DNA of 63,934 nucleotides, the filler included, from Atractiella rhizophila (taxonomy: Eukaryota): NCBI GenBank assembly GCA_021432655.1. It is 7 parts of 7 records of this genome, joined end to end, with 100 filler letters (N's around TTAATTAATTAA, not from the genome) between each part and the next. Parts side by side here need not be neighbours in the genome. Positions count along the whole stretch, not along the records: positions 52,194 to 57,978 come from MU272009.1; 6 more parts are not named here. One strand, 5' to 3'. The notes below the pieces were generated by a model that saw nothing but the letters and a program-made list of their open reading frames with translations, was not told the DNA's origin and ran no database searches. This document shows, in pieces, positions 3,048-62,252 of the stretch; the first letter of the stretch is position 1, and each line of letters begins with the position of its first letter. A program made the position numbers and the translations under genes.

Positions 3048-5837
3048 TTAGGTGGGAAGGAAGGATTGGGATTGGCAGTACATTCCGTGCGCTATAAAAG
3101 AATACTCAGAAACAAGTTTGAATTGAGGAATGTCAAGACGTACGTGTTTGTCTCCATGTTACGAGAGCAATGAGGACCCATGAGACGAAAAAGATAATAG
3201 AGACGATGAGCCAGATCGCGCCCCAGACTACAAACAATCAAATTATCAGTTCCACATCCATGATAGGTATAAAGGGAAGATGACTGACTTCCAGGGTTAA
3301 GCCTTGGGATCCTCGTTGCGAATTGTACAACGCAACAAGGATTGACTTTCCGGAACACAAAGTCGTCCATAACGTCCCAGACGACATAGAAACTCGACAT
3401 GACACCAGTGAAGAGGACGAAATATCGCAGTGCAACGGCATGATCAATGAACCACAACCTGTTTCCCAGCCACATGAATGACGCTCGCAGGAAGAGGGAG
3501 AGGTGAACGAACCCAATAAGCAATCCAGCCGCTGCTGCAGTCAACACCTTTGTAATGGCTCCATTAGCCCACCAAAACACGACCAGAAAAGTGAGCAAGA
3601 TGATTCCGCTCGCAATCTTACTCGCGAGCGTATTGAACCCACAAAACGTGAGAGCTCCACCGATGAGGATACTGGAGGGGTATCCAGCTATGAGGGCGGC
3701 GATGGGCCATATCCCACCTTCCAACTGGGTGCTCCCTCCTTCGTTCGGATCGATGGACACGCTTTCCACTCGAGCTCCGGAGAGAGCGGCGAAGACAACG
3801 TGTCCGAATTCGTGGTAGGCGACGACGACGAGTTTGAGGGGGTAGAGGAGGTGACGGATCGCGAAGAGGTTCCAGCCGACGAGGATGGCAACTAGATAGA
3901 GCGCGATTGCATCTGGATCCAACAATCTTGTCAGCTTTCTACCAGTTTGCAGCAGAGGAAAACTAACATAGAGATGCCTGCTGCGTTTTTGTTGGCCGCA
4001 GCCCGCTTCCGTCCTTCTCCCCGGCGTCTCCAGGTTGGCATGAACGATGGACATGAGGTTGGTTGTCGGGTTGAGAGCCTCCTCCTCCTCCTGGAACATA
4101 GAGAGTAGTCGTTGATTGTGCCAGCCGCAGAGTAGTCGTTGTGTAGCATGTTCCTCCATTCTCTAGATAGTCCGAGCAAATGCCAGGGTAGTACACCGTC
4201 ACCGTTACCGTCGACGGGCCTGACCCTCCTCCCGGGTTTAATGTCCGTGTTACTGTTATCGTCCCCGTTCTAAACAAAACAAGTTTGAGCAGTTAAAATT
4301 GCAAGGGATTAGAAGGACTCAGAGACTCACCCAGGCGGTGCTGGCTCCCCGATTGTTGTTGTCACTGTTACAGTTCCGGTATTGTCGGGCCTAGCCAAGA
4401 GAAAGGTTTGTCAGTCAGTGGATCGAAATGTTGAATCATCCAAGTTCGCGTTAAAGACTCTCTGAGAATCACAGAAGAATCACAGTGCCACAGGCGAATG
4501 AGGGATGAAATTTACTCAGTCATGCTGCCCAGGCGGCGTCGCCCTTCTTCTCAAGCGATTACGTTTCCTCATACAACAAAGCAGGAAGCACTCTGCCAAG
4601 TATGCGAACATCTCTCGTTCTCGATGAAGCCGCAGAGTAGTCGTTGTGTAGCATGTTCCTCCATTCTCTAGATAGTCCGAGCAAATGCCAGGGTAGTACA
4701 CCGTCACCGTTACCGTCGACGGCCCGGACCCTCCTCCCGGGTTTAATGTCCGTGTTACTGTTATCGTCCCCGTTCTGAACAGAATAAGTTTGGGCAGTTA
4801 AAATTGCAAGGGATTGGAAGGACTCAGAGACTCACCCAGGCGGTGCTGGCTCCCCGATTGTTGTTGTCACTGTTACAGTTCCGGTATTGTCGGGCCTATA
4901 GCCAAGAGAAAGGTTTGTCAGTCAGTGAATCGAATTGTTGGATCATCCAAGTTCTCGTTACAGACTCTCTGAGAAATCACAGGAGAAACCAGAGTGCCAC
5001 AGGCGAATGAGGGACGAAATGTACTCAGTCGTACTGCCCAGGCGGCGTCGGCCTTCTTCTCAAGCGATTACGTTTCCTCAGACAACAAAGCAGGAAGCAC
5101 TCAGCCAAGTATGCGAACATCTCTCGTTCTCGATGACGAGCGGGAATAAAGAGAAGGAAGAGACGAGAGTGCGGCTTAAAAGCACCTCCGGAAAGGTGGA
5201 CAAGGCCTTTCACGCGCTGTGTGACGTGAATCGCCGGATCAGTTGGACACATCCATTGAACTTGAACTTGTGTCCCACCTTGTCCCACCCATTGGACCAG
5301 CTGGTGAATGTGACGCAGCAGCACTTGAATATTATAAGAGTCACCAAGAATTCGGACTCTTCATACCATCTCACATCTCATCTCTCCATACGCGATAACA
5401 AACGACAAGAAGACTCACTGCTCAGTGACCGTCACAAAAACGGTCGTCGTATCCCATCCGCTCCACCTCTTCACCAACTGTTCCGGCTCCACATCCTGCA
5501 CAAAATCGACGAGATAAGGATGTTTCTTCTCCAATCCGACGGCGGCCAGCCATCGCTTTTTCCGCTCTCTCCTCTCTCGCTCCTCCTCCGATATGCCAAG
5601 GTCATCGAGCTCCCAAAATTCCTGATCCAGGAGTTCGGGATACTGGATGTATGGGTCCACGGACTCGTCAAAGTCGCTGTAGAGGGCTATTGGTGTTGGA
5701 GTTGGGAGTATTGTGATGGGCACGGAGGGAGAGGTGATTGATGGGCCGGGGGAGTTCCATGACGACGACGGTGTTGGATGGGGAGGATAGTACGGTGTTG
5801 GGGAGGGCAAAGACAAGGAAGGGGAAGTTATGATCAT
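3048..5837 (-). CDS. Peptidase M50B-like intramembrane metalloprotease with long Pro/Thr/Gly-rich N-terminal extension
   Basis: HEFGH zinc motif in LLYPLKLVVVAYHEFGHVV, IDPNEGG, AGYPSSILIG; several TM helices; spliced end HGMYCQSQSFLPT*. Upstream exons join in frame (VTVTEQ|PDNTGT..PPG|TGTITVT..QQASL|YAIALY). Start codon tentative. Confidence 0.8.
4123..5136. repeat. Direct tandem duplication, two ~505-509 bp copies (4123-4627, 4628-5136), inside the M50B gene
   Basis: Both copies start AGCCGCAGAGTAGTCGTTGTGTAGC and end CTCTCGTTCTCGATGA; scattered substitutions and small indels. Confidence 0.95.
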
Positions 5838-23010: not shown

Positions 23011-23156
23011 TGTTGGAAATGGGTTATGAAAACAACGGGACATGATCGGTGTTTGCCATGTTTGCCGCGCGTTCCGAAGCAGAGGCAAACATGTGGCACT
23101 TCACCGCAAGACCGGTACTATAAAGGAACACCTGCGAAGTCTCTTCCGTTTTCCCC

Positions 23157-23373
23157 AATCACTTTATCATCTATTTCATCGTGCTCACGTTTGTGTGATT
23201 GGGGACATTTTAGGTATGTTTGTATGCATTGCAATCAATCACTTTATCATCTATTTCATCGTGCTCACGTTTGTGTGATTGGGGACATTTTAGGTATGTT
23301 TGTATGCATTGCAATAAATCACTTTATCATCTATTTCATCGTGCTCACGTTTGTGTGATTGGGGACATTTTAG
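23157..23373 (+). repeat. 80-bp tandem repeat x2.7 within the LTR
   Basis: ACTTTATCATCTATTTCATCGTGCTCACG recurs at 23161, 23241 and 23321; units differ only by AATCAA vs AATAAA. Confidence 0.97.
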
Positions 23374-23441
23374 CCCAAGCCAAAATTTCATTTGGTAGCG
23401 AGAGAGCTCGATTACGGTCCGCGAGTAACATCACATCAAAG

Positions 23442-26023
23442 ATGGCTACGGAAGGAAGTACCACGCCAACAGGAGTTACCTCAGGGAGGAGAGATCCATT
23501 CGGGACAGGAGCCTCGACCCCAGGAACAGAGGAGGCACCATTATTCACGACCTCGACTGTCCCATACTCCGTTTCATCTTCCGCGAAAATTGCGTCCGAA
23601 ATAAACCTCCCAACGGGATCAGTGCAGACCATTGTTGCAAATGAGAAGATCCCTCCTCTCACTCTCCAAAATTCGACCAGATTCTTCCGCTCTCTGAAGT
23701 CCATCCTCGACGCGAACAACGTGGGGATTCTGCTGGATGGCATCGTGACGGAACCAGTCAGCCCTATGTCTGAGGAAGGGCTGACGGTGACGCAGATGCA
23801 AGAGATGATGTCCAAGGGTCAAACTCCGAAGATAAAGAGTCCAACAGATGAGGAGAATACGGCGTTCATCAAGGCTTTGTCGAACTGGAGACGCATGGCG
23901 GCAGTTGCGATGATGGTCTTGAAACAATCTGTGGGAGACACGGCGAGGGTGTTCATCGAAGACCAGGTGGATCCGGTGAAGGCCATAAAGATTCTGAAGG
24001 ACAAATACGAGACCAAGGAATTCGCTAACACGGCACACCTGTTGCGACAATTCACGAACTTCACCCACGAGTCGAGTAATCTTAGCCTTATCGAATGGAT
24101 CGCAAAATTGCACGAGCGAAGAAGAATATTCAACGAGTCCCAGGACGAACTGACGATCAGCGATACCCTCCTTTCGTATACCCTCGTCAATGGATTGCGA
24201 GAAGAAACCAGAAGGTGGTTGTCCTCAACAGGAGTCAACCAAGCGGATCTCGCATCTGTTGTGAACCGGCTGACGGCAGAAGAAATGGCTTTGAGGAATA
24301 GGGAGGAGGATAGATCAGGAGGCAAAGACGTCGCACTCGTCGCCAGGATTTCACCCCAGCAGACCGCGTCCTCGAACAACGCGGGAAAGAAGAGGGACGG
24401 CAATGATGGCCGTTCACAACGTCCATTGATCAACAGGATTGCGCCCAATGCCAGGACGATCAAAAATTGGGGAAATTGGCCTCATGGGACGACTGAAAGG
24501 GGACAATTTCGATTGGGAGCGCGGCAATGTTACCACTGCGGGAAGGACGGCCATTTTGGACGGAACTGCAACCTCAATAGGAAGCAACAGGCTGCCTCCC
24601 TCCTTGCTGTTTTTAAACAGTACGACATCGAGATTCCACGAAACGAACTCCATGTCCTCATCGCTACAGTTGCAGATGATCAACATGCAAACCCGATACG
24701 CGCAACGGACAACAATCCTGCGACGGGGAAACCGTATAACGAGCAGTTGGATGTGGTCTCAGACTATGACCAATCAGTGGGAGTTTATATGGCGGAAGTC
24801 GAGGATGATGATGGGCTGGAAGTGGTCGACTTCGGAGCCTACTTTACATCCTTCGACCTTGACACTTTGAGTCCCTCAGAGATCGAGAATTTCGACCCCG
24901 AATGCGAAGGATTCGCGTTGATGGCCGGAATAAGTGACGGAGAACAGGTCGAAGGTACGATGCGACCCTTCCACCTGGACAGCGCCGCCTCAATTCACCT
25001 CACTGTATGCCCATGGCTATTGCACGATTTCAAGGAGCTCGATAAACCAATTGGCATCAAGGGTGCTTGGGGTTCCAAGGGTTTCGCCACAGCGATCGGT
25101 AACCTCAAAGCTGCGTTCACACTCGACGACGGGACAACGAGCGTTGGGGTGATAAGAAACGTCTACTACGCACCGGGGTTAGGCGTGAATCTCATTTCAT
25201 CAAAGATCTTGATGGAAGCTGGAGTGCAGTTCAAGAATGACACAAAAAGGGTCTACTTGCATGGAAAGGATGGGAAGATGTTCGGAACGGCTTCTATCGG
25301 TCGAACGCTCATCACATTGCAGGCGAGTTACCTTCCTGCTCCAATGCCCCCAGACCAAAATCCTCACGCCGCATTCGTCGCAGTGCCTATTCGTGTCTGG
25401 CACCAGCGGTTAGGTCATCCAAGCAACGAACGGCTCCGCTTGGCCATCAAGCATGAAATCTTGTCAAAGTCTCAAATAAAGGGTACCTGCAATGCAACGC
25501 ACTTAAATCAGTGTATGACTTGTGCGAGAGGGAAGGCAACGTACACGAAAAGTAAAGGTCCTGCAAACCTAAGGGAGCAAACTCCGGGAAAAACGCTAGG
25601 ATTCGATACGTGGGGGCCGGCTACATTGTCAAGCATTCAGGGGTTTCGATACGTCTTTGGTGCAGTCGACGAAGCATCAAGGTATATGATAGTTGGAGGA
25701 ATGAAGCTGAAGTCTGAGGCACCACGATTGCTGGAAGGAATACGAGCAGCCATAAAACGAGACCTGGATGTGAGCTTAAGGAAGATACGGCACGATCAGG
25801 CGACAGAGTTCATGTCATACGCGATGAAAGATTGGTGCGATAAGCATAACATTGCATCTATGAAGACCATGGCTTACGCACACGACCAAGGAGGACTGTG
25901 GGAACGTCAGTGGTATACCCTCTTCAATATCGTTCGATGTCTTCTCCTCGAATCGGGACTACCATTATATCTATGGTATGAAGCATTGAGAGTCGCCGTG
26001 TACATGAAAAACATCATGCCTAC
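23442..26023 (+). CDS. Copia Gag-Pol polyprotein (uninterrupted up to the gap)
   Basis: UBN2-type gag, zinc knuckle CYHCGKDGHFGRNC, protease LDSAASIH, WHQRLGHP, integrase DTWGP/RHDQATEF/GLWER. Confidence 0.93.
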
Positions 26024-51223: not shown

Positions 51224-52093
51224 TCATTCATCTTCCACACTCCTCATCTCTGCACCTCCTGCCTCTCCGAATTCATCCTCACTTTCATCTCCAGCTGGCG
51301 CCATTACGCCTTGCTGCTGAGATAACCTTCTCACGCTTCTAGGACTCTCTGGCGGACGTTCCGGCTCTTCCTCCAAAGTCATATTCTGTCCACTGTGTGG
51401 TGCAGGCGGTGGAGACGCTGGTGTAACTGGAGAGGGAGGGGCGGCGGGTAAAGATTCTTTTGTTGACTGAGATTGGACAGACGCCTGTGTAGTGCCTTGA
51501 GACTGAGTCGTGCCCTGAGATTGAGAACGAGGCAGCGTGACCGTGCTCTCGCTCGATCTATGTTGGGTCGCGTTGGCGTTTGCGACACTCTGTCTGGGTC
51601 CATGTTGCACTTGAGTTGGAGGGACAGATGCGTCGATATAATACGGAGCAATAGGTACCATCCTCCCTTCTCGCTCACATGCCAAAACCCAATCTGGTCT
51701 AACGACGGGAATTGACATCCGAACAGCCTTTTCGTATTCGACGACAGGTGTAGGTGGGGGGCCATTTGAATTCGGAAGCTCTGGAGGTGGACCTTGAGGC
51801 GAGGAGCAAACGAAATGGGTCGTGTCGATCTGGATACGGTCCGTGTAGCGCGCCTTGATGACTCCAAGCGAGTTGATGGTTTGCGTCAACAGTGGTGCTG
51901 GAGATATCGAGCCGAGAGTCGCCACAATGCCTGAGGTGTCTGTTATCGTGTGTGTCTTCACTTTGAGAGTTTGGGAGCTGTATGTCCCGCCCGTCGTCTT
52001 CAACACGAGGTGGAATGTGTATTCAGTATCGAGTGCCAGAGCCGAGAGTTTTGTGCTCGTGAGGACGAGGGGATTAGGAATAGTTGTAAGTCT
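51224..52093 (-). CDS. CHS5: Exomer subunit Chs5 (FN3 + BRCT), 3' part
   Basis: IPNPL..TSTKLSALALDTEYTFHLVLKTTGGTYSS, THTITDTSGI, IDTTHFVC, SIPVVRPDWVLACEREGRMV. Confidence 0.9.
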   Translation of the reverse strand, partial: RLTTIPNPLVLTSTKLSALALDTEYTFHLVLKTTGGTYSSQTLKVKTHTITDTSGIVATLGSISPAPLLTQTINSLGVIKARYTDRIQIDTTHFVCSSPQGPPPELPNSNGPPPTPVVEYEKAVRMSIPVVRPDWVLACEREGRMVPIAPYYIDASVPPTQVQHGPRQSVANANATQHRSSESTVTLPRSQSQGTTQSQGTTQASVQSQSTKESLPAAPPSPVTPASPPPAPHSGQNMTLEEEPERPPESPRSVRRLSQQQGVMAPAGDESEDEFGEAGGAEMRSVEDE

Positions 52094-52193: not shown

Positions 52194-54466
52194 AGGAAAG
52201 TGGGTGCTAACCGTCTCCTGGGTTCAGAGTCCACTTTCCTGGGACCTCTTTTTCGAGCACGCGTTTCAAAGTCTAGCATTCATGAGCTCTTTCGCGAAAT
52301 TAAAGAGTGGTGGGGTACTATACGCTCTCGGCATATTCCCAGGTCTCTAGTTTTCCGAGATACTTCTCCGGTCTCGTGCTCAACTCAAGGAAGAAATCAT
52401 ATCCAAACAGGCCGTAGACGGCTCGCAGCAGGTCAAAGACGCCGGACATCTCAGACTCGATCTAAAGACTTGTTAAGACAAGCCAGGTGTCAAGGAAACG
52501 GCTAGCAACCTGTTCTGGCATGCAAAAGATGTGCGCATCATCCTGTTGAAACCTTCGCACTCTAGTAAGACCACTCAAAGCACCAGACGCCTCGTTTCTA
52601 TGTATCACGCCAAAGTCCGCCATGCGTAATGGCAGTTCCTTGTAACTTCTCTCTCTTGAGTTGAATATGAGGCAATGTCCGGGGCAGTTCATAGGCTTCA
52701 GAGCAAAGGTTTGATTCTCGACGCCGAATTGAAACATGTTCTCCCGATAGTGATCCCAATGTCCAGATTGCTTCCAAAGGTCCACGTTGAACGAGTTCGG
52801 GGTGATGACCTCTTGGTATCCTCTCTTTCGGTACTCTTCCTACCGGTGACTTCGTTATTAATTCCGTCTAATCATGCTCGTAGCTCACCTTGATCAATGA
52901 CACGATATTATTGTATATCTTCGTTCCATTTGGCAGCCAGAAGCAACTTCCTGGCGACAGTTCGTGGAAGAAGAAAAGCTCTTGATCCTGGACAAAACAT
53001 CAGCTCAAACGCCTATCTATATCACGAAGTATGTACTTTGCCAATTTTTCGATGATCTCTCTTCGCAGCTTCCTCTTTGAACTTCTTGTATTCATCCATC
53101 TGCTTCTTATCCGGAAAGGAAATACCGTAGATCCGCTGAAGGCTTTCGTTGTCTGCATTGCCTAAGAAATAGGACGAAGAACTCTAGATACCATCCATAT
53201 CGTTAACGATAATAAGGTACAAGAGTGCGAGAAGGAACCTACTTTCACGACAGCGAAGGAATTGATGCGGCCGGTGTGCGGTATGTGCGGGCCACGGCAG
53301 AGATCGATCATAGGCCCGCAGCGGTAGACAGTCGTCGAAGAGCCATCTGGGATCTTGTCCTTGATGAGATGTACCTTAAATTTGTTGTACTACGTAGGGA
53401 AGGTCAGTCCATAAATATAAGTAATCGTGGCAAGGTACCCCAAAGAGGTCCAATAGATCTTCCTTCTTCACAACTAAACGTTCGAACGGTTGTTTTTCTT
53501 TAATAACCTTCTTCGACACCTGCTCAAGGAGTGGCCATTCTTCCGTTTTAACGACCCTGTTAGGTTGGCTTAGGAAAGACGACGAGGCAATAAGAATGAT
53601 TACTGACCCGGTGCCATCTTCTCCCAAAGCCATTTCGTAGAAAAAGCCCTCATCAGTAGGAGGTCCCAGGCACAGATGGCAATTGTCATAGTGTCGTTCA
53701 GCAGCCTCTCCCAGAACATGAGCTGACGAATGCCAGAATACTTGTTTTCCTTCGAGATTTGAATCATTCAGTCTGCATCTAAGTATTGTCGTAAATTTAC
53801 CTTCTGGATGTTCAAAGTCCAAAAATTCTATTGTAGAACGATCCGCTTCTAACGGTCGTTGTAAATCCCATAACTCGCCGTTCACCTAGCACTGTCATTA
53901 GTACATGTAGGAATGCGCTGAATCCAGCAAACGACACGAAACATAGTCCCCAGAACTATCTAAGTGCAAATACTCGGCTAATTGCATTATATGCAGACTC
54001 CTGAGATCTCTGCTGTCTGACGATCTGTTGCGGAAGCAGCATTTACGTTCTCACCCGATCAAAGATACCCTACTGCTCATACATGAAACCATACCTTTGC
54101 AATTACAATTCTATCTTTGGCGCTCTTATCAACCAGGTCCCAAGGTTTCGTTTCCCACCTACGTCCATCACCCTCCGTTCCATTGATAATGTATTTTACT
54201 GCATCTCTCTCCTTCGTCGCAAGTTCTGCTTCCAATGCTGCCTTCAGCCTATTCCATTTCTCAATTCTCTCGGCAATAAAAGCAGAGGGTGGGTTGCGCT
54301 CTAAAGGAAGGGCTGGGGCTGCTGTTTTCTTTTCTTTCGACATCGTGTAACGAGATTGCGTGCTCAGTGAGCGCGGAAGGTCGCGTAGAACGGAGTTGGA
54401 TGCACTAATCAACGACAGGGGGGAAGCCAGACGTCGAAGCCAAAGATTTGAGAGATGAAAACACAT
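52194..54466 (-). CDS. THS1: Threonyl-tRNA synthetase, 5' part
   Basis: [79 protein letters not shown]. Confidence 0.96.
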
Positions 54467-55848
54467 GAGAAATGAAAGAATCCTGAGTCAGATTAAGTAG
54501 GGTTGTAACGAGCCGCCTTACGTTGTGTGTATATATTTTTGTCAAAGGGAAGAACGCACAGTGTAGTTGGTATGATGTAATGGCTGCATGTCAGATTGTG
54601 GGCTCACGGTTCTCTGCCTGTCCGTGTTCGATTCACGGTACCAACAAGTCTTTTTTATGACCAAAATGTGTACTACACTAGTTCCAGTGCTCAAGACTTT
54701 CAGTGAAGTGTTCACACTTACTGCCTTATGTTACCCTTTAATCTTAAAGCACCAAGACGTCCAGCTTTAGGTAAAGAGAATAACGTTTAAGGTTTCTGGC
54801 CACCCCAAACTGCAAAATTTTCCCCCACATCCATTTGAATCCCCATGTGGTCTTCCAGCCTGAAAATACCGCGAGCCTCCAACAAGCATCCAATGCATGA
54901 TTGTTTTTGCAGATTTCCAGGACAGGTGAAGATGTTAGGGCTAACACTCTTCTTATTGTGAGTAATAGGGGAAGCTGCCAAGTAGAGTGGATATCCTAAG
55001 AGAACCAATCTGGATATCTCACTCTATTGGCAGGGGTATTTATATATAGACAGACACAAGTTCCAGAATGTTCCAGTATATTCCATCATTAACTCTATTT
55101 GACACATGTCTAATAGAATCTTCTAGACCATTTGCCACGTATTCCAGAATATGAATCATGCTCCATAAGCAAACCCTGACAGAAGAACATGAACAACTAC
55201 ATTGTTTTGTGAAGTTTATCCATGAAGATGATACAGGTTGGGGAGCATCTCTCTGCTCCTGGATTGGAAGAGAAGCTAAGAAAGTATTGCAACAAAACTG
55301 TGGCAGAGTAAAACTTATATCTCTTTAACTACAACAAATCCTCTTCACGCTTCAAATGACTTATTTAAACAGAGAGTATAAATAATAATTCGATTTCAGT
55401 ACTTTTTCTACAAATTGGAGAAGCTACCCCTTATCAAGTACTACACCAAGTAAACTGGACATTTACCTTTACTTTACCAGGATTACTTTGTCCATACTTA
55501 TAAAGTAAAAGGAGAAACGGTCACTTCACCACTAAATTACAAACCCTGTTTGAGTATACATATGTCCAATGCCAGCCCTGATGCCTCTTTCTGTTTGGGT
55601 GGCAAACTGAATGGAGACAACTTATTAAATCAGTGTACTTTTGTAACGTTTGCTTTGCTTTGCTGGTGATAGAAATGGGTCTAAAGCCAGGTATTTATAT
55701 AAGGCAGATGTTATGTACAGTCGTCAATTGGTGATTTGGCTGTAGTATAGGTAAACTTAAGTACATAATATGATATGGGAAGACTAACCTATAGCAGAGA
55801 AAAACCCAAGAGACTACTATAATGCCACCTCCACTGCTCTCCAATCTA

Positions 55849-56520
55849 TTTGTGCTCAACAATTGTGTCAGTTCGGCGACGGGCGTAACTCCATTTTCAC
55901 TTGATTGTGATCAACATCCCCACATGGCTTTTGAAACCATCTCCGACGAGGACATCCCCACAGCGGCGCAATTCGTCGAAAAGATGCAAATTGCCGACTG
56001 GGAAGCACAAGCAGCACTCAAGCAAGCAGCTCATGGCAAAGCATTATGATAGAAAACGTGCATCGGCGCCCGAATATCATGTCGGCGATTCCGTCTGGTT
56101 GAGCACGAAAAACATCAAGTCGACGAGACCTGTCAAAAAGCTAGATGACAAATGGCATGGCCCTTTTCGCATTTTGCAAGTTTTGGGTCCCCTCAACCTT
56201 AAACTTGAGTTGCCATCCTCATGGAAGATACATCCAGTGTTCCATGTGGGCCTAATATGAAAGTCAACGAAGACGACATCCCTGGCAGAGTCCAGTTGCC
56301 CAAACTACCTCCGGAATTGGTGAATGGAATTGAAGAATGGGAGGAGGAAAAAATCATTGATGGAAAATGGTTCGGTACCCAAAATAGAGTTTTCAAATAT
56401 CGCGTTCAATACAAAGGGTATTCACCATCTGAGGACAAGTGGATCAGCATCGCAGACCTAGAAAATTTGTGAGATGCTGTAAATGACTATCACAATGCAC
56501 ACCGTCTTGCAGTTCGTCCC
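55849..56520 (+). mobile_element. Degenerate Ty3/gypsy chromovirus fragment (integrase C-terminus + chromodomain)
   Basis: NNCVSSATGVTPF; YHVGDSVWLSTKNI..KLDDKWHGPF..IHPVFHV; EEWEEEKIID..YRVQYKGY..DKWI; frameshifts and stops. Confidence 0.88.
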
Positions 56521-57822
56521 CATTCCATACCAAACTCTGTAAAAAATTGCCCCAATGCGCGTTCTCGTAACCTTCGACGAAAACGTGCTGGACGGTCTTC
56601 CTCACTTTAAGGGGTCCAACACCCCTATATGCCTTGCTAGGTCACATCCTAGTCTTTGGTACTTCGGGCAGGTTGGCGACTTGGTTGTTGGTGAGTCCAT
56701 TCGTCGCCTGTTAAAGACGAATGCTCATTGCATTCTCACACCATCACCAATGTCACATTTATGAAATTGCCCTCAATTGTGAGGTCCCCTCCCCATCACT
56801 TTAAGAGGTCCTACTCCTCTACACACCTCGCTGGGTGAATCCCTAGTCACATTGTTGAACATAGGTCTAGGCGAGGTGCCGGTCTGTTCCTCAACAGACA
56901 GATCGGCGACCAGTTTGTTGGTGAGTTACCCACCCCATTTTCGAAAGACAGTTGCTTATTGCACCAAAACAACACTGGTCAAATTTCAAAAAATCCCACA
57001 ATTGCGAGGTACACAACGACTCCCCCCTCACCTTACACTCTGTTTTGATGTTTATTCTATGCTATTTTGCTTTTGTTTTTTCGGCTCACATGTCCTTATT
57101 TGCTCGACGACACATTACCCCACAAAGACGATAGACCGGCAACGAGCATGTAAACCGCTGACCCGTTGTACTGCATGTTGTGTCCACGAGTATGGGCCTA
57201 TTTGGTTGCGAGCTTGGGTAGCTAGTGGGAGGAACACCTGAGGATCCTCCCCTAGACAGGGGAGTGTGAGTCTTACTTCACCCACTTTGCCAAAGTTCCC
57301 CACTTACCACAATCCCTGATGCCACCATGACACAATGTACACTTGTCGCCGCCCGGCAATTTGTAAGGATCTAAGGCTAGGAGTGGTTAGCAGTCAATAA
57401 TGAGCACATTAGAGAAGTATAGAGAGACATATCTATGAGTGGTTGGTGGTCAATAATAAGCATCAACACTCCTAGGCAGAACTAAACTACATAGTGATGA
57501 CTCATACAAGTCATAAGAGTCATAAGAGGCAGATGACCAAAACAACACACTACAACTAACACTCCCACCTGGGCAGCTGTCTCTTGATGCTCCCACCAAA
57601 TCCAGAGACTCTCCCACCGAATTCACACAATGTATACTCGATATAAAGCAGAAAGCATATTAGTTTTGCAATGAAAAGAAGAGGAAAAGCCTCGTACCGC
57701 TTAAAGCGGCGTCTTATAACCCCACAGAGGAGGAAAGGAATTTTATTGCGCCCCATAACTGCCTCAGACACTTGGGTAGGGGCGGCGCAAACCCATCATA
57801 ACTCGAAACTTGTCCACGCTGG

Positions 57823-57978
57823 CGCCATAGGTTCTTGGGACTCGTGGTACCAGCTTACTTTGTGGACCTGGAAAGCGAAAATAACCGAGTCCCTACAACA
57901 ACTCTACCCGTTCTAGTCAGGTCAGAAGACAGGTCCACAGTTATACGGTCGTTTGGAGGAGTGGTTCCGTGAAGGTCA
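57823..57978. mobile_element. Ty1/copia RNase H C-terminal fragment readable only in the unreversed complement
   Basis: Complement read left to right gives AVSKNPEHHGRMKHLDL(+1 nt)RFYWLRDVVEMGKISPVFCPGVNMPANLLTKALP. Confidence 0.85.
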
Positions 57979-58078
57979 NNNNNNNNNNNNNNNNNNNNNN
58001 NNNNNNNNNNNNNNNNNNNNNNTTAATTAATTAANNNNNNNNNNNNNNNNNNNNNNNNNNNNNNNNNNNNNNNNNNNN
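57979..58078. other. Artificial contig linker
   Basis: N..TTAATTAATTAA..N, 100 nt. Confidence 0.97.
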
Positions 58079-58339
58079 CAGTTGAGGTCACTGCTTTAAC
58101 TTGCTTTAGGACTTGCTTTTGAGGACGAAGACGAAGAAGGAGTCTTGTGGATGCTGCCGGAGTTTGAATGCGAGACTTTCGACTTTCTCACCTGCCAGAC
58201 GACATTGTGCTGTAGACAGACATTCAAACTCTACGGCTTTTTAACGGTTCAAGGTCACAAAGACTAGTACTCGAACGTCCTAAGAGGCTGTATTTTGACC
58301 TATGCTTGCAGGTTCTGTTGGATGTTTTATAGAAGGTTT

Positions 58340-59500
58340 TACGGAGAGCTTTACGGACTTTCTTACGTGTCTCTTCTCGACCTCTTTTACGAGTTCTTTC
58401 GTCCGCTCTTTCGCGCAATGTTACGCTTGCTAAGACGAACCTACATAGGAGAGGTTCAGACAGAAAGGACGACTGCACAAGGAAGAGGTACGACTATGAC
58501 TCGCTGATAGTCCCTTAGCAAATGAAACGCGAGGTAGGACAGGACATGGCGCGGCGCTTCTGTGGTTAGGATTCCGTTGAGCGCGAGTTGAGCCACCAGT
58601 AACCGTGGTACAAACAGAAGAAGATGGACGGAGTTCACCGGTAGTACCGTGAGAAATCACCTGGCGAACCACTCACGTTCCACGACTTTCTACCGAACAT
58701 AAGACTGCTTCGTTTTTCGTAAACAAAGACGACAAGGACAGCAGGACCGCCTCAGGAGGCAGTAGCACTTCGATTAGGTTGCGAAGAAGAAGCTGGAGGT
58801 AGTTGTCCTTTGGAACCTGATATAGAAGCTACTCCATGTAGAAGAAGGAGAAGCGCTTAAAAATATCTGACACTCCATCTGTGACCGCGTTCTTCCGAAA
58901 TAGTGCGAGCGTAGGGTTCCGGTGCTGGGTGACGGTCGCGGACCTGGTCTTCCCGTCGAGGAACCGTTCGCGTTGCATGGGAGGGAGGAGGAGCGTTCCA
59001 AAGGCCAGAGAACGCCATGGAGCAGAGGAACGGCAACTTACGCTAGGGTCAACAGCCTTGGTAGGATAAACGCTATACCTTGCCTTCCTACTCGCCGCGA
59101 CTGACAGTGTCCTCCATAAAGGTCGACAACTCTAAAAGCCTACTCTTCTTCTTTCTCCGCTTCCTTTTCTCCTACTCCCGAATATGACGCAAGCGGAGTA
59201 AATAAATAACCATGGTCCTACAAGACTTAACGCCTTAGTCCAAGCCTTGGTGCCAATTGAAGACTTATAGCAATAGGGAAAGCCAAGACAGTAGTGGTCC
59301 ATTCGAGGAGGGATCCAAAGAAGGTTTCATTCATTGCCAAGGCCAAGGTGTCGAAATGAAGATGCCAACCGCGACCAAGCACAGGAGTGTTTATAGATGT
59401 AGTCTCAAGGTCGCGACTGTTAACTTGTCGTGAAACCCGATAACTGGAGCTCTTTCTCTTTCCTGAACCCCAACGAGGAGGAGGGTGGTTTTGTCTGACT
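58340..59500. CDS. EI24-domain Rrt8/Lds-like membrane protein gene in mirror orientation (complement, not reverse-complement)
   Basis: Unreversed complement: ATG 58340; introns 58457-58512, 58670-58718, 58835-58879, 59190-59240, 59300-59352, 59376-59429, all GT..AG. Protein AWMYPLQ|GIVYFALHP..FYLPQV..GPL|AF..VLAES..IFDE|..LRYLVSLPLNAIPVVGT..HRRYFQL..AYTA|FG..|FTSTVGA|ALWAIDLE..TKTD*. Two 1-nt indels are needed. Confidence 0.88.
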
Positions 59501-59776
59501 TGAAACACGTTTAAGGGTACGGTCGACAGCCGACCAAGTGGACATGTATAACACCGACGAACATCCCGATCCCGCTTTTACTCACTAGAAAGTAACTGAC
59601 GCCATACATTTCTCGGTTTGTCGTCAGACAGCGATTGCTCGTCTTTGTGCAAAGTTATAACTTTGCTCCGTTCGGACAAACTAAACACGTTCCTCCCTTT
59701 TGGATCTAGCTGCAAGCGCGAGGAGCGAAGAACACGATCGAGACAGGTGCAAACTCAAGCTTGAAGCTGTCGTGCC

Positions 59777-62252
59777 ATGAAAGTGAGTATTTTCTCGTCT
59801 GACAGCAGCTAAGATATGGACTCTGATGAAAAAATCGAAAGAATGAAGTTTAGAAAACAGCTACAGTCTCAGCGGATACCTGGATGGGCGAACCATTATG
59901 TCGATTATAAAGGGCTTAAAAAGGTTATCAATAACCTATCTACCGCTTCCAGCAATTCTCCCACCATCAACGATGCAGCATCTGAAGTCCTCACCCAGTC
60001 TCCCCTTTCCCAACCTCCAGTTTCCGCGACGTCTGCTATTCCAGCTGCACCATTCTTCTTCAAAGTCGAACGAGAGCTAGATAGAATCAATCACTTTTAC
60101 GCTTTGAAGCAGTCTGAGCTACAGATGCGGCTGAGGACACTGGTGGAAAAGCGGAAGGTCTTAGCCAGGGGGAGGAGAGGAGTTAGGATTAGCAAGGAGA
60201 ACTCAGGCTGGTTAGCTCTCTACGAAGGATTCAAGAACTTTGAAAGAGATCTGGCCAGATTTCAGGTGAGAGCTCTCCCAAAGTCTGAACTTAGTGCTTT
60301 TGCAAGGTAATGGGTTTGCTTTCGAGTTCTCGATATTTGTTCGTGTGGCCGCTTGGGCTGCCTTTGCTGGTTCGCTTGCGGAAGCAGTCGCTAATCAATT
60401 CGCATTCGTAGCAATATATCGACCTCAACGCCACTGCATTTCGAAAAATACTCAAGAAGTTCGATAAGCGTTCCAAATCGACGACGAAGGAGCTGTACAT
60501 CTCTCGTCAAGTCGAAGTTCAGCCTGCGTTTAATCGCGATGAGTTGACCAAGCTCAATGATATCGCTGCTGCTAATATATCAGACCTTGAGAGGCTGATA
60601 GAGAAGAGTGATACGGAAGACGGTCAGGCTTTACCTGGAGAAGATGCTCTGATGGACGAGGATCCGGCCCTGAGCCGTTCGGCCGTTGCACATGATCATC
60701 AGCACAGTCTCTTTGATGATCAAGGTCGTGAAGGCGGCAACGAGCTTGAGGATATTGAGACGACTCTGGTAGAAGCTGTCCGAGGAGACGATCACAGTCT
60801 CATCAAGGAAGTTTTGAGTCAGCTTTCAGAAGTTGCGGAGAAGCTTCCAGAATCGAAGAATCAGGTTCAAAGGATCCTTTGGAAAGCTGCGTTGGAAGAA
60901 CCAACCGAATTTCGCCCTAATGTCCATCTCATCCCTATCGAACTCCTCGATTTTGCTTTTGTCGACGATATTAACAATCGCACAACTCTGCACTTATCTG
61001 CCAATACCGGCAGGCTAGCTCTCGCAGAACTTTGCCTGTCCGATACTAAGCGCGTGCCTATTGCTGCTCCCGATGCGTATGGACGCACGGCGGTCCACTA
61101 TGCTGCGATGAAGGGATTCGACAGCGTTCTCGATCTTTTGCTTGAACGAGGAGCGGACCCTCACCTCATGGATTTCGATGGCTACAGCGCGATGATCTAT
61201 GCTATCACGAACGGGAGGACCTCTTGCATCCGCAAACTTCTGGAAAAAGGTGTATCCTTCGTTCCGCGTGATCCCACAGACCTCAATCCCCTCTCCCTTG
61301 CGTGTCAGCACGGTCACGAAGATATTGTCGAGCTGCTTCTCGACAATGACGTTCCCCTCTCTCTTAACCCAGAAGGTTTGTATCCTCAACATCTCGCCGC
61401 TCGTCAAGGTCATGTCAAAGTATTGGAACTTCTCATTCTGAAGCGAGGGGCGTCCAAAATTGTCGATGTTCCCGACAAGTATCAGAACTGGACTCCTATC
61501 TTTCACGCCGCTAGCGAAGGTAGACCAGATTGCGTTAGGACCCTAATACAAGCCGGAGCGAACCTCAATCTTCTGGACGAAATGCGCAAGACTGCAATTC
61601 ACTATGCAGCTTGGCAGTCTAACATCGATTCTCTCAACCTCCTGCTCCTCGCCCAACCGGTAGTAGCGTCAGAGAAGAGAAGCTCGGTAGACTTCTTCAA
61701 TGAAGTTTCTCCTCCCGACGCTCATCAAGTTAGCGATGCCACGGCTTCGACGGGCTCTCAAGGGTTTGAGCAGATGGACTTGGAACCGGACAACATCCCA
61801 TCTCTCCTCCTTCCCCCGCCGATCATCCCCTTTCGTATCTACGGTCATAACTACCTTGAGCGCAAATCTTTATTACAGCTCACCCTTGGGCATCCAAATA
61901 CAACTCGGCTTCCACATGCTCCTCCGGTCCGCTTCTACTCTCGCAGCAGCGAGATTTTCTCCCTCAAGCTCGTCATCACTCCTCGACCTGATCCGCTTGC
62001 GATACCGCATTCCGTGATTATTCCTCTCGCAGATGAGAGAGAGGTTTTCGACTTCCAAGTCAACTCCTTAGAAGAAGTTTACCTCGAGTTCGACGTCTAT
62101 CCCACCTTCGGTTCAAAGATCATAGGGAAAGGAGTCGCCCTGCCGAGCTTGTTCAAACAGGTGGTCAGCCAGCAAGGCTTCGTGATTCCCCTTGTGGACT
62201 CTCATCTCAAAGTTATCGGGGAGATTGCCTTCGAGCTTTCAATAGTCCGGCC
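59777..62252 (+). CDS. PHO81: SPX-ankyrin-GDPD-like CDK inhibitor Pho81/Nuc-2, 5' part
   Basis: MK|FRKQLQ..YVDYKGLKK, FFFKVERELDRINHFY, LNATAFRKILKKFDKRSKSTTKELYISRQVEVQP, ankyrin repeats, LPPPIIPFRIYGHNYL. Confidence 0.9.

Follow-up and report, generated by a model that had tools for sequence, protein, structure and literature searches.

Reversal without complementation of a copia RNase H end at the edge of one piece in a composite fungal window

The final 154 bases of piece 6 (57825-57978) in the window analysed here, a stretch of 63,934 nucleotides including filler, are reversed in place without being complemented. Read backwards, on the true minus strand, they give the C-terminal portion of a copia RNase H that is degenerate and carries one frameshift. 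We consider it highly probable that a string-handling error produced this tail, that the locus is otherwise an ordinary retrotransposon nest in which 56520-57824 is correct, and that the start of the next piece carries the same kind of fault. A preliminary description had assigned mirror polarity to the whole of 56520-57978. It had spotted mirrored coding sequence by eye, and its reading holds for the tail; over the other 1,305 of the 1,459 flagged bases, where contigs match the text as written, it was over-extended. The mirroring is not a real biological feature, and the underlying DNA holds a gypsy fragment and a copia 3' end of an ordinary kind. The nest would comprise, on the plus strand, a gypsy integrase/chromodomain fragment (55889-56472); non-coding repeat DNA from 56473 to about 57175, between the gypsy and copia remains; and, on the minus strand, a degenerate copia 3' end with its pol end pointing left. 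The reversed tail would supply the RNase H end of this copia element; after it would come the final 20 codons with their stop (57824-57764), untranslated sequence, a polypurine tract (57570-57562) and a 3' LTR running from 57561 to 57176 or 57255.

The window is a composite of seven pieces, one of which also contains a 500-N gap, joined by six linkers that each consist of 44 N, TTAATTAATTAA and another 44 N; the site of interest is the end of piece 6 (52194-57978). The genes in the window are fungal. Several pieces end in the middle of a gene or inside an open frame (a synthetase at 52194, a copia frame at 26023, a BRCT gene at 52093 and GDE1 at 62252), so we read the window as a set of slices, and its pieces look like slices rather than natural contig ends. 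Beyond 52194, a read-derived DNA contig extends 2,241 bases past piece 6. Read evidence throughout is from Logan contigs rather than raw reads, principally those of two DNA runs (X1 and X2) from one sample of the same species, which is possibly the source sample of the assembly itself. Sampled words of piece 6 were present in these runs at fractions of 0.62 (X1) and 0.60 (X2), and their contigs cover 30 of 30 bins of 52194-57978. Two further runs (X3 and X4) cover the threonyl-tRNA synthetase gene and give one 129-base LTR match, and their gaps elsewhere are uninformative. That gene (52194-54500, minus strand) has nine or more short introns (48-59 bases, with one of 209), every one confirmed by spliced X3/X4 contigs, and over the approximately 2.3 kb of the synthetase region the window differs from X1/X2 at 9-11 letters.

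The letter-by-letter complement of 57820-57978 contains, in two frames, KNPEHHGRMKHLD and ..WLRDVV..LLTKALP, bearing out the copia RNase H motif that had been noticed in the unreversed complement. In a TBLASTN search with four copia proteins, two distant ones matched the tail through their own C-termini at E 0.45 each; this being too weak on its own, we built a copia profile of 305 positions from the RNase H-end segments of 120 copia C-termini, those listed among the 402 polyproteins with E <= 1e-20. The profile was searched unfiltered against 546,154 residues in 42 translated frames, comprising 24 from the window as written, complemented and under two other letter swaps, and 18 from three edited versions of piece 6. 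Matches scoring above 0 bits are confined to the tail when it is complemented or reversed, and the best match on the window as written scores -4.4 bits. In the plain complement of the window, one match of 5.2 bits spans profile positions 255-289 (i-E 4.6e-04 at Z=1, about 0.02 over the 42 frames) and another of 4.4 bits spans positions 234-255 (i-E 7.8e-04 at Z=1, about 0.03 over the 42 frames); the two are adjacent and in the same order as in the profile. When the tail is instead reversed in place, a single minus-strand match of 17.0 bits runs across the junction over positions 255-302 (i-E 1.1e-07 at Z=1, about 5e-06 over the 42 frames). The tail is thus copia sequence, and its motifs begin with KNPEHH..KHLD, at the end of the contig, and finish with ..LLTKALP, next to the junction. 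Across versions, profile positions 234/240-255 score between 2.4 and 8.0 bits on the tail.

The nature of the fault and its position come from the reads. At 57820 and 57824, read-derived contigs depart from the written text, and the loose ends past these points open with ACTGGAAGTGCC.. or something very similar, as the tail does when read leftwards from 57978; by eye they agree with the tail read backwards at 25 of 26, 22 of 24 and 25 of 30 letters. These loose ends belong to other copies of a high-copy family and are not demonstrably from this locus, and the final depth bin (57791-57978) combines the normal 57791-57824 with the tail, such that the contigs cannot prove the absence of the written order. 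Because the loose ends are the tail read backwards, the mirrored part is 57825-57978, the switch lies at 57824|57825, and the fault is reversal in place. Mapping reads had been suggested as a check on polarity; the contigs back the mirrored order at the tail and the written order over 56520-57824.

The best surviving alternative is that the tail was complemented in place, leaving a plus-strand RNase H fragment that runs off the contig end, head to head with a minus-strand copia tail and LTR. Taken by itself the tail cannot tell reversal from complement, and complementing it in place yields the same two profile matches, of 7.3 bits (positions 255-288) and 3.5 bits (positions 234-255). The latter rises to 8.0 bits if 57808-57824 is complemented too, a small pull towards an earlier switch; left of 57808 the complement reading has no profile match of any kind. 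However, in contigs of other copies it is the far end of the tail that follows 57820/57824, not the near end, and reversal gives in-phase continuity, a codon split across the junction and 9.7 more bits. Complementation of this kind could arise in SOLiD colour-space decoding, where one miscall turns everything after it into its complement; such errors would give a mid-contig switch to unreversed complement of the kind originally proposed, whereas the reads and frame continuity here show reversal in place. The two other letter swaps that colour errors can produce (A<->C/G<->T and A<->G/C<->T; 12 of the 42 frames) gave no score above 0 bits and no consistent k-mer signal, protein or profile match, and we rejected a colour-space origin. 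Complementation of the tail in place is accordingly very unlikely.

Reversal in place restores the usual 3' end of a Ty1/copia LTR retrotransposon (represented by polyproteins of fungi and plants, e.g. P0003, P0004, and P0118 from Microbotryum). The as-written minus strand from 57823 to 57764 translates to ASVDKFRVMMGLRRPYPSV followed by a stop. With the tail reversed, this follows on in phase from ..LLTKALP, and 57824|57825 falls inside a codon. Joining this stretch to the reversed tail raises the match from 7.3 to 17.0 bits, adding a K-F...G-L tail as found in the copia consensus after the ..TKPL.. motif. By translation, profile and contigs, 57764-57824 (minus strand) is therefore the end of copia pol, comprising its last 20 codons, one of them the split codon, and a TGA stop at 57766-57764; contigs align over the interval as written, with substitutions and indels reported up to 57781. 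Only about 70 codons of copia pol, with one frameshift, lie on piece 6 before the element runs off it. The order of parts is that of Ty1/copia elements in general, namely RNase H C-terminal motifs, a short K-F...G-L tail, a stop, a purine tract and a TGTTAG LTR; unlike in a full element, the reverse transcriptase, integrase, gag, 5' LTR, primer binding site (PBS) and target duplication are off the piece.

Downstream of the stop on the minus strand, 57571-57763 is a putative 3' untranslated stretch with high-copy cover as written, in which two copies of GGTGGGAG precede a third that sits inside a purine tract at 57562-57570. This tract, AGGTGGGAG, is followed directly by TGTTAG (57570-57556 for the two together), and its position downstream of pol and immediately before the LTR start suggests that it acts as the polypurine tract. 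The adjoining sequence, with TGTTAG at 57561 as its inner edge, would then be the copia 3' LTR (57176-57561, minus strand). Reads from other copies break at this edge, with loose ends at 57558 and 57561 and a joint that departs from 57561; the predicted start at 57561 coincides with these read break points, which confirms the inner edge. The outer edge is uncertain, with two candidates, ..ACAACA with its end at 57176 and ..CTCACA with its end at 57255, suggested by the sequence and by a drop in depth in bin 57019-57211. Summed depth in X1 reaches 114,746 over the repeat, against approximately 226 for the single-copy synthetase gene, and is 167 in that bin. An RNA-like contig from run X3 matches 57433-57561 on the plus strand. 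Within the LTR, the minus strand carries GGCGAC (57349-57344) and then GTAAGT (57306-57301).

A second copia element in the window, a normally oriented gag-protease-integrase at 23214-26021, has no DNA similarity to this 3' end. Its best matches are two Atractiella proteins at 44% and 42% identity, with four proteins at E <= 1e-10, and about 2.7 copies of an 80-base unit, 99-100% identical, lie at the start of its open frame (23156-23373).

To the left of the copia remains the text is in normal polarity. The plus strand at 55889-56472 is a fragment of a Ty3/gypsy chromovirus integrase C-terminus, in which a Tf2-type SH3 domain precedes a chromodomain, as is usual in such proteins, and in which the frame is broken. 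Pfam identifies SH3_Tf2-1 at 1e-15 and Chromo at 3.2e-05 (24.2 bits, slightly below the 25.1-bit cut-off), and the chromodomain is normally oriented, as had been stated. The mirror switch had been placed just after it, at 56520; there, one contig bridges the text as written from 56469 to 56623 (6 differences, 1 gap), and the actual switch is the one at 57824|57825. The interval 56473-57175 (plus strand) is non-coding repeat DNA, identified by contigs and by repeat families D1 and D3. Contigs match it exactly as written at 56675-56810 and 56920-57071 (the latter 152 bases), bin 57019-57211 is also covered by read-derived contigs, and Pfam finds no match in the ORFs at 56543-56761 and 56783-57241. 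Two tandem modules on the plus strand (56602-56696 and 56796-56926) each contain a small hairpin, a GGCGAC word (at 56675 and 56905) and, after it, a donor-like GTGAGT site; the stems of the two hairpins differ by paired changes (GGGG..CCCC and AGAGG..CCTCT).

The composition of this part of the piece is ambiguous. We scored polarity with a strand-symmetric 4-mer measure that compares the written with the reversed order and was trained on the rest of the window. Of 126 blocks of 500 bases, 119 score positive; among the seven negative blocks, four are strongly so, namely 57694-57978 and the three blocks of 58079-59578. The tail scores -6.4 against a matched-length null of 4.1 +/- 2.9, and 56520-57824 scores -1.7 against 33.4 +/- 11.0, with the LTR stretch (57176-57561) at -7.6 against 9.7 +/- 5.2 (z -3.3). 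Composition alone would suggest that 56520-57824 is mirrored too. Since contigs match 56469-57824 as written, the ambiguity is settled: 56520-57824 is correctly written, and we attribute its low score to its TA- and CTAG-rich repeat make-up. On genic DNA the score distinguishes mirrored from normal polarity well (z -6.8 over 1.6 kb); on short TA-rich repeats it is unreliable.

These compositional values are also what favours the reading in which the whole of 56520-57978 is unreversed complement, with an LTR end, a tRNA PBS and a gag start at about 57165 leading left to right to RNase H. Consistent with it, the cumulative polarity score stops climbing near 56600-57130, and CTAG is conspicuously frequent, as had been pointed out: 56520-57824 has 8 CTAG to 3 GATC (6.1 and 2.3 per kb), whereas the rates in pieces 1-5 are 1.7 and 4.2 per kb. 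The counts are right, yet the CTAG-rich stretch is carried by reads as written, and the excess is a property of these repeats and not a sign of mirroring. Against the reading stand the as-written contigs (three of them described above, with 0 to 6 differences) and the RNA-like contig at 57433-57561. The copia profile has no match left of 57808, and its positions 1-233 (the reverse transcriptase end and RNase H front) find none in the complement of 56520-57824 with filters off. Furthermore, it is the as-written minus strand that has the in-phase pol tail, the purine tract and the TGTTAG LTR start. With gag starting some 660 bases ahead of the RNase H end, the rest of pol (protease, integrase and reverse transcriptase) would not fit in between. 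We give this reading scarcely any credence. An RNase H front half picked out by eye in the complement of 57540-57820 (D.D..G...DR..., S.E.E-like) was also rejected: it has no profile match, and reads support the written order there.

Two further elements of the whole-tract reading dissolve once the orientation is known. The purine tract described at about 57020-57029 is there (written ctcccccctc); its spelling is the same in the complement as on the true minus strand, so it carries no information on polarity. The LTR end, PBS and gag start described at 57146-57163 (to 57185) likewise have their letters in the complement, but the DNA there is correctly oriented and the resemblance is due to chance. 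The complement of 57154-57163 spells a word containing TGGCGAC, and in this it is like TGGCGACC, the Ty4 PBS with which it had been compared; unlike the Ty4 PBS, it lies in a stretch of normal polarity and is on neither real strand, since complementing correctly oriented DNA is what creates it. By chance, any particular 7-letter word should turn up about 0.17 times in 1.4 kb when two mirrored readings are counted. As the word is just outside the copia 3' LTR, no PBS is expected there, and the PBS test for copia came out negative. There is no credible tRNA in the window; the one call, at 54566-54646 (ARAGORN 'tRNA-???', with a four-base anticodon loop oddity), is doubtful and probably spurious. 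Just downstream of it, at 54975-55125, are high-copy repeat joints.

Least probable of all is that nothing is mirrored and that the copia-like peptides of the complement are chance resemblances in ordinary repeat DNA: the plain-complement matches are indeed weak (4.4 and 5.2 bits) and the two distant copia proteins reach only E 0.45, but the two matches are adjacent and in profile order, both proteins match one spot through their own C-termini, the family sequence in reads is the tail read backwards, and the reversed version scores 17.0 bits.

Across the linker, the start of piece 7 shows the same signature. The interval 58079-59690 scores -31.5 against a null of 42.8 +/- 10.9 (z -6.8), in agreement with the earlier indication of another mirrored tract on the neighbouring piece. 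Polarity change points at 59687, 59694 and 59596 place its right edge within 59590-59700. From 58079 to about 59690, protein-like frames, including membrane-protein-like stretches, occur in the complement reading only, and composition supports the conclusion that the interval is mirrored, probably by the same kind of fault as the tail. It may contain an EI24-like gene, an identity that comes from the preliminary description and from reading the complement frames. The SPX-ankyrin-GDE1 gene of piece 7 follows the block (ATG at 59845) and has normal polarity. Among the 16 piece ends scored, the only clearly negative ones are the end of piece 6 (-9.9 over the last 300 bases, -6.4 over the last 154) and the start of piece 7 (-5.7 over the first 300); the last 154 bases of piece 8 score -2.2 (+6.0 over the last 300), and the start of piece 6 is at zero. 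A BLASTN search of the complemented window against the window gave 0 matches at E <= 1e-3, and there is no normal-polarity copy of the mirrored tracts in the window.

We know of no natural process or assembler that writes DNA reversed without complementing it. The locus resembles sequences reversed without complementation as controls or through scripting slips, in which composition is kept, the written strands have no frame or homology, and homology returns when the sequence is read backwards; unlike in deliberate reversed controls, the change here affects two piece ends within correct sequence, and nothing indicates intent. The two faulty ends face each other across the linker at 57979-58078. 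For two random faulty ends among 14 (seven pieces), the chance of facing one linker is 6 in 91. Given the facing ends and the slice-like pieces, we lean slightly towards a fault introduced in preparing the composite window, by a step working in joined coordinates; against such a step, nothing has disturbed the linker, and on either side of it the reversal stays inside a single piece. A fault in the public assembly is a serious possibility, if somewhat short of an even chance, and would mean that at least one gene is hidden in the public record. That the public assembly itself contains the reversal, and contains it again at further scaffold ends, is rather unlikely; were it so, real genes, the EI24-like one among them, would lie unannotated in mirrored text and a systematic polarity screen of the assembly would be needed. 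The importance of the observation is one of data hygiene only: gene finders and homology searches are blind to features in 57825-57978 or 58079 to about 59690, which must be read backwards. Elsewhere in the window, 4123-5136 is a tandem duplication of approximately 505 bases (4123-4627 and 4628-5136, 95% identity).
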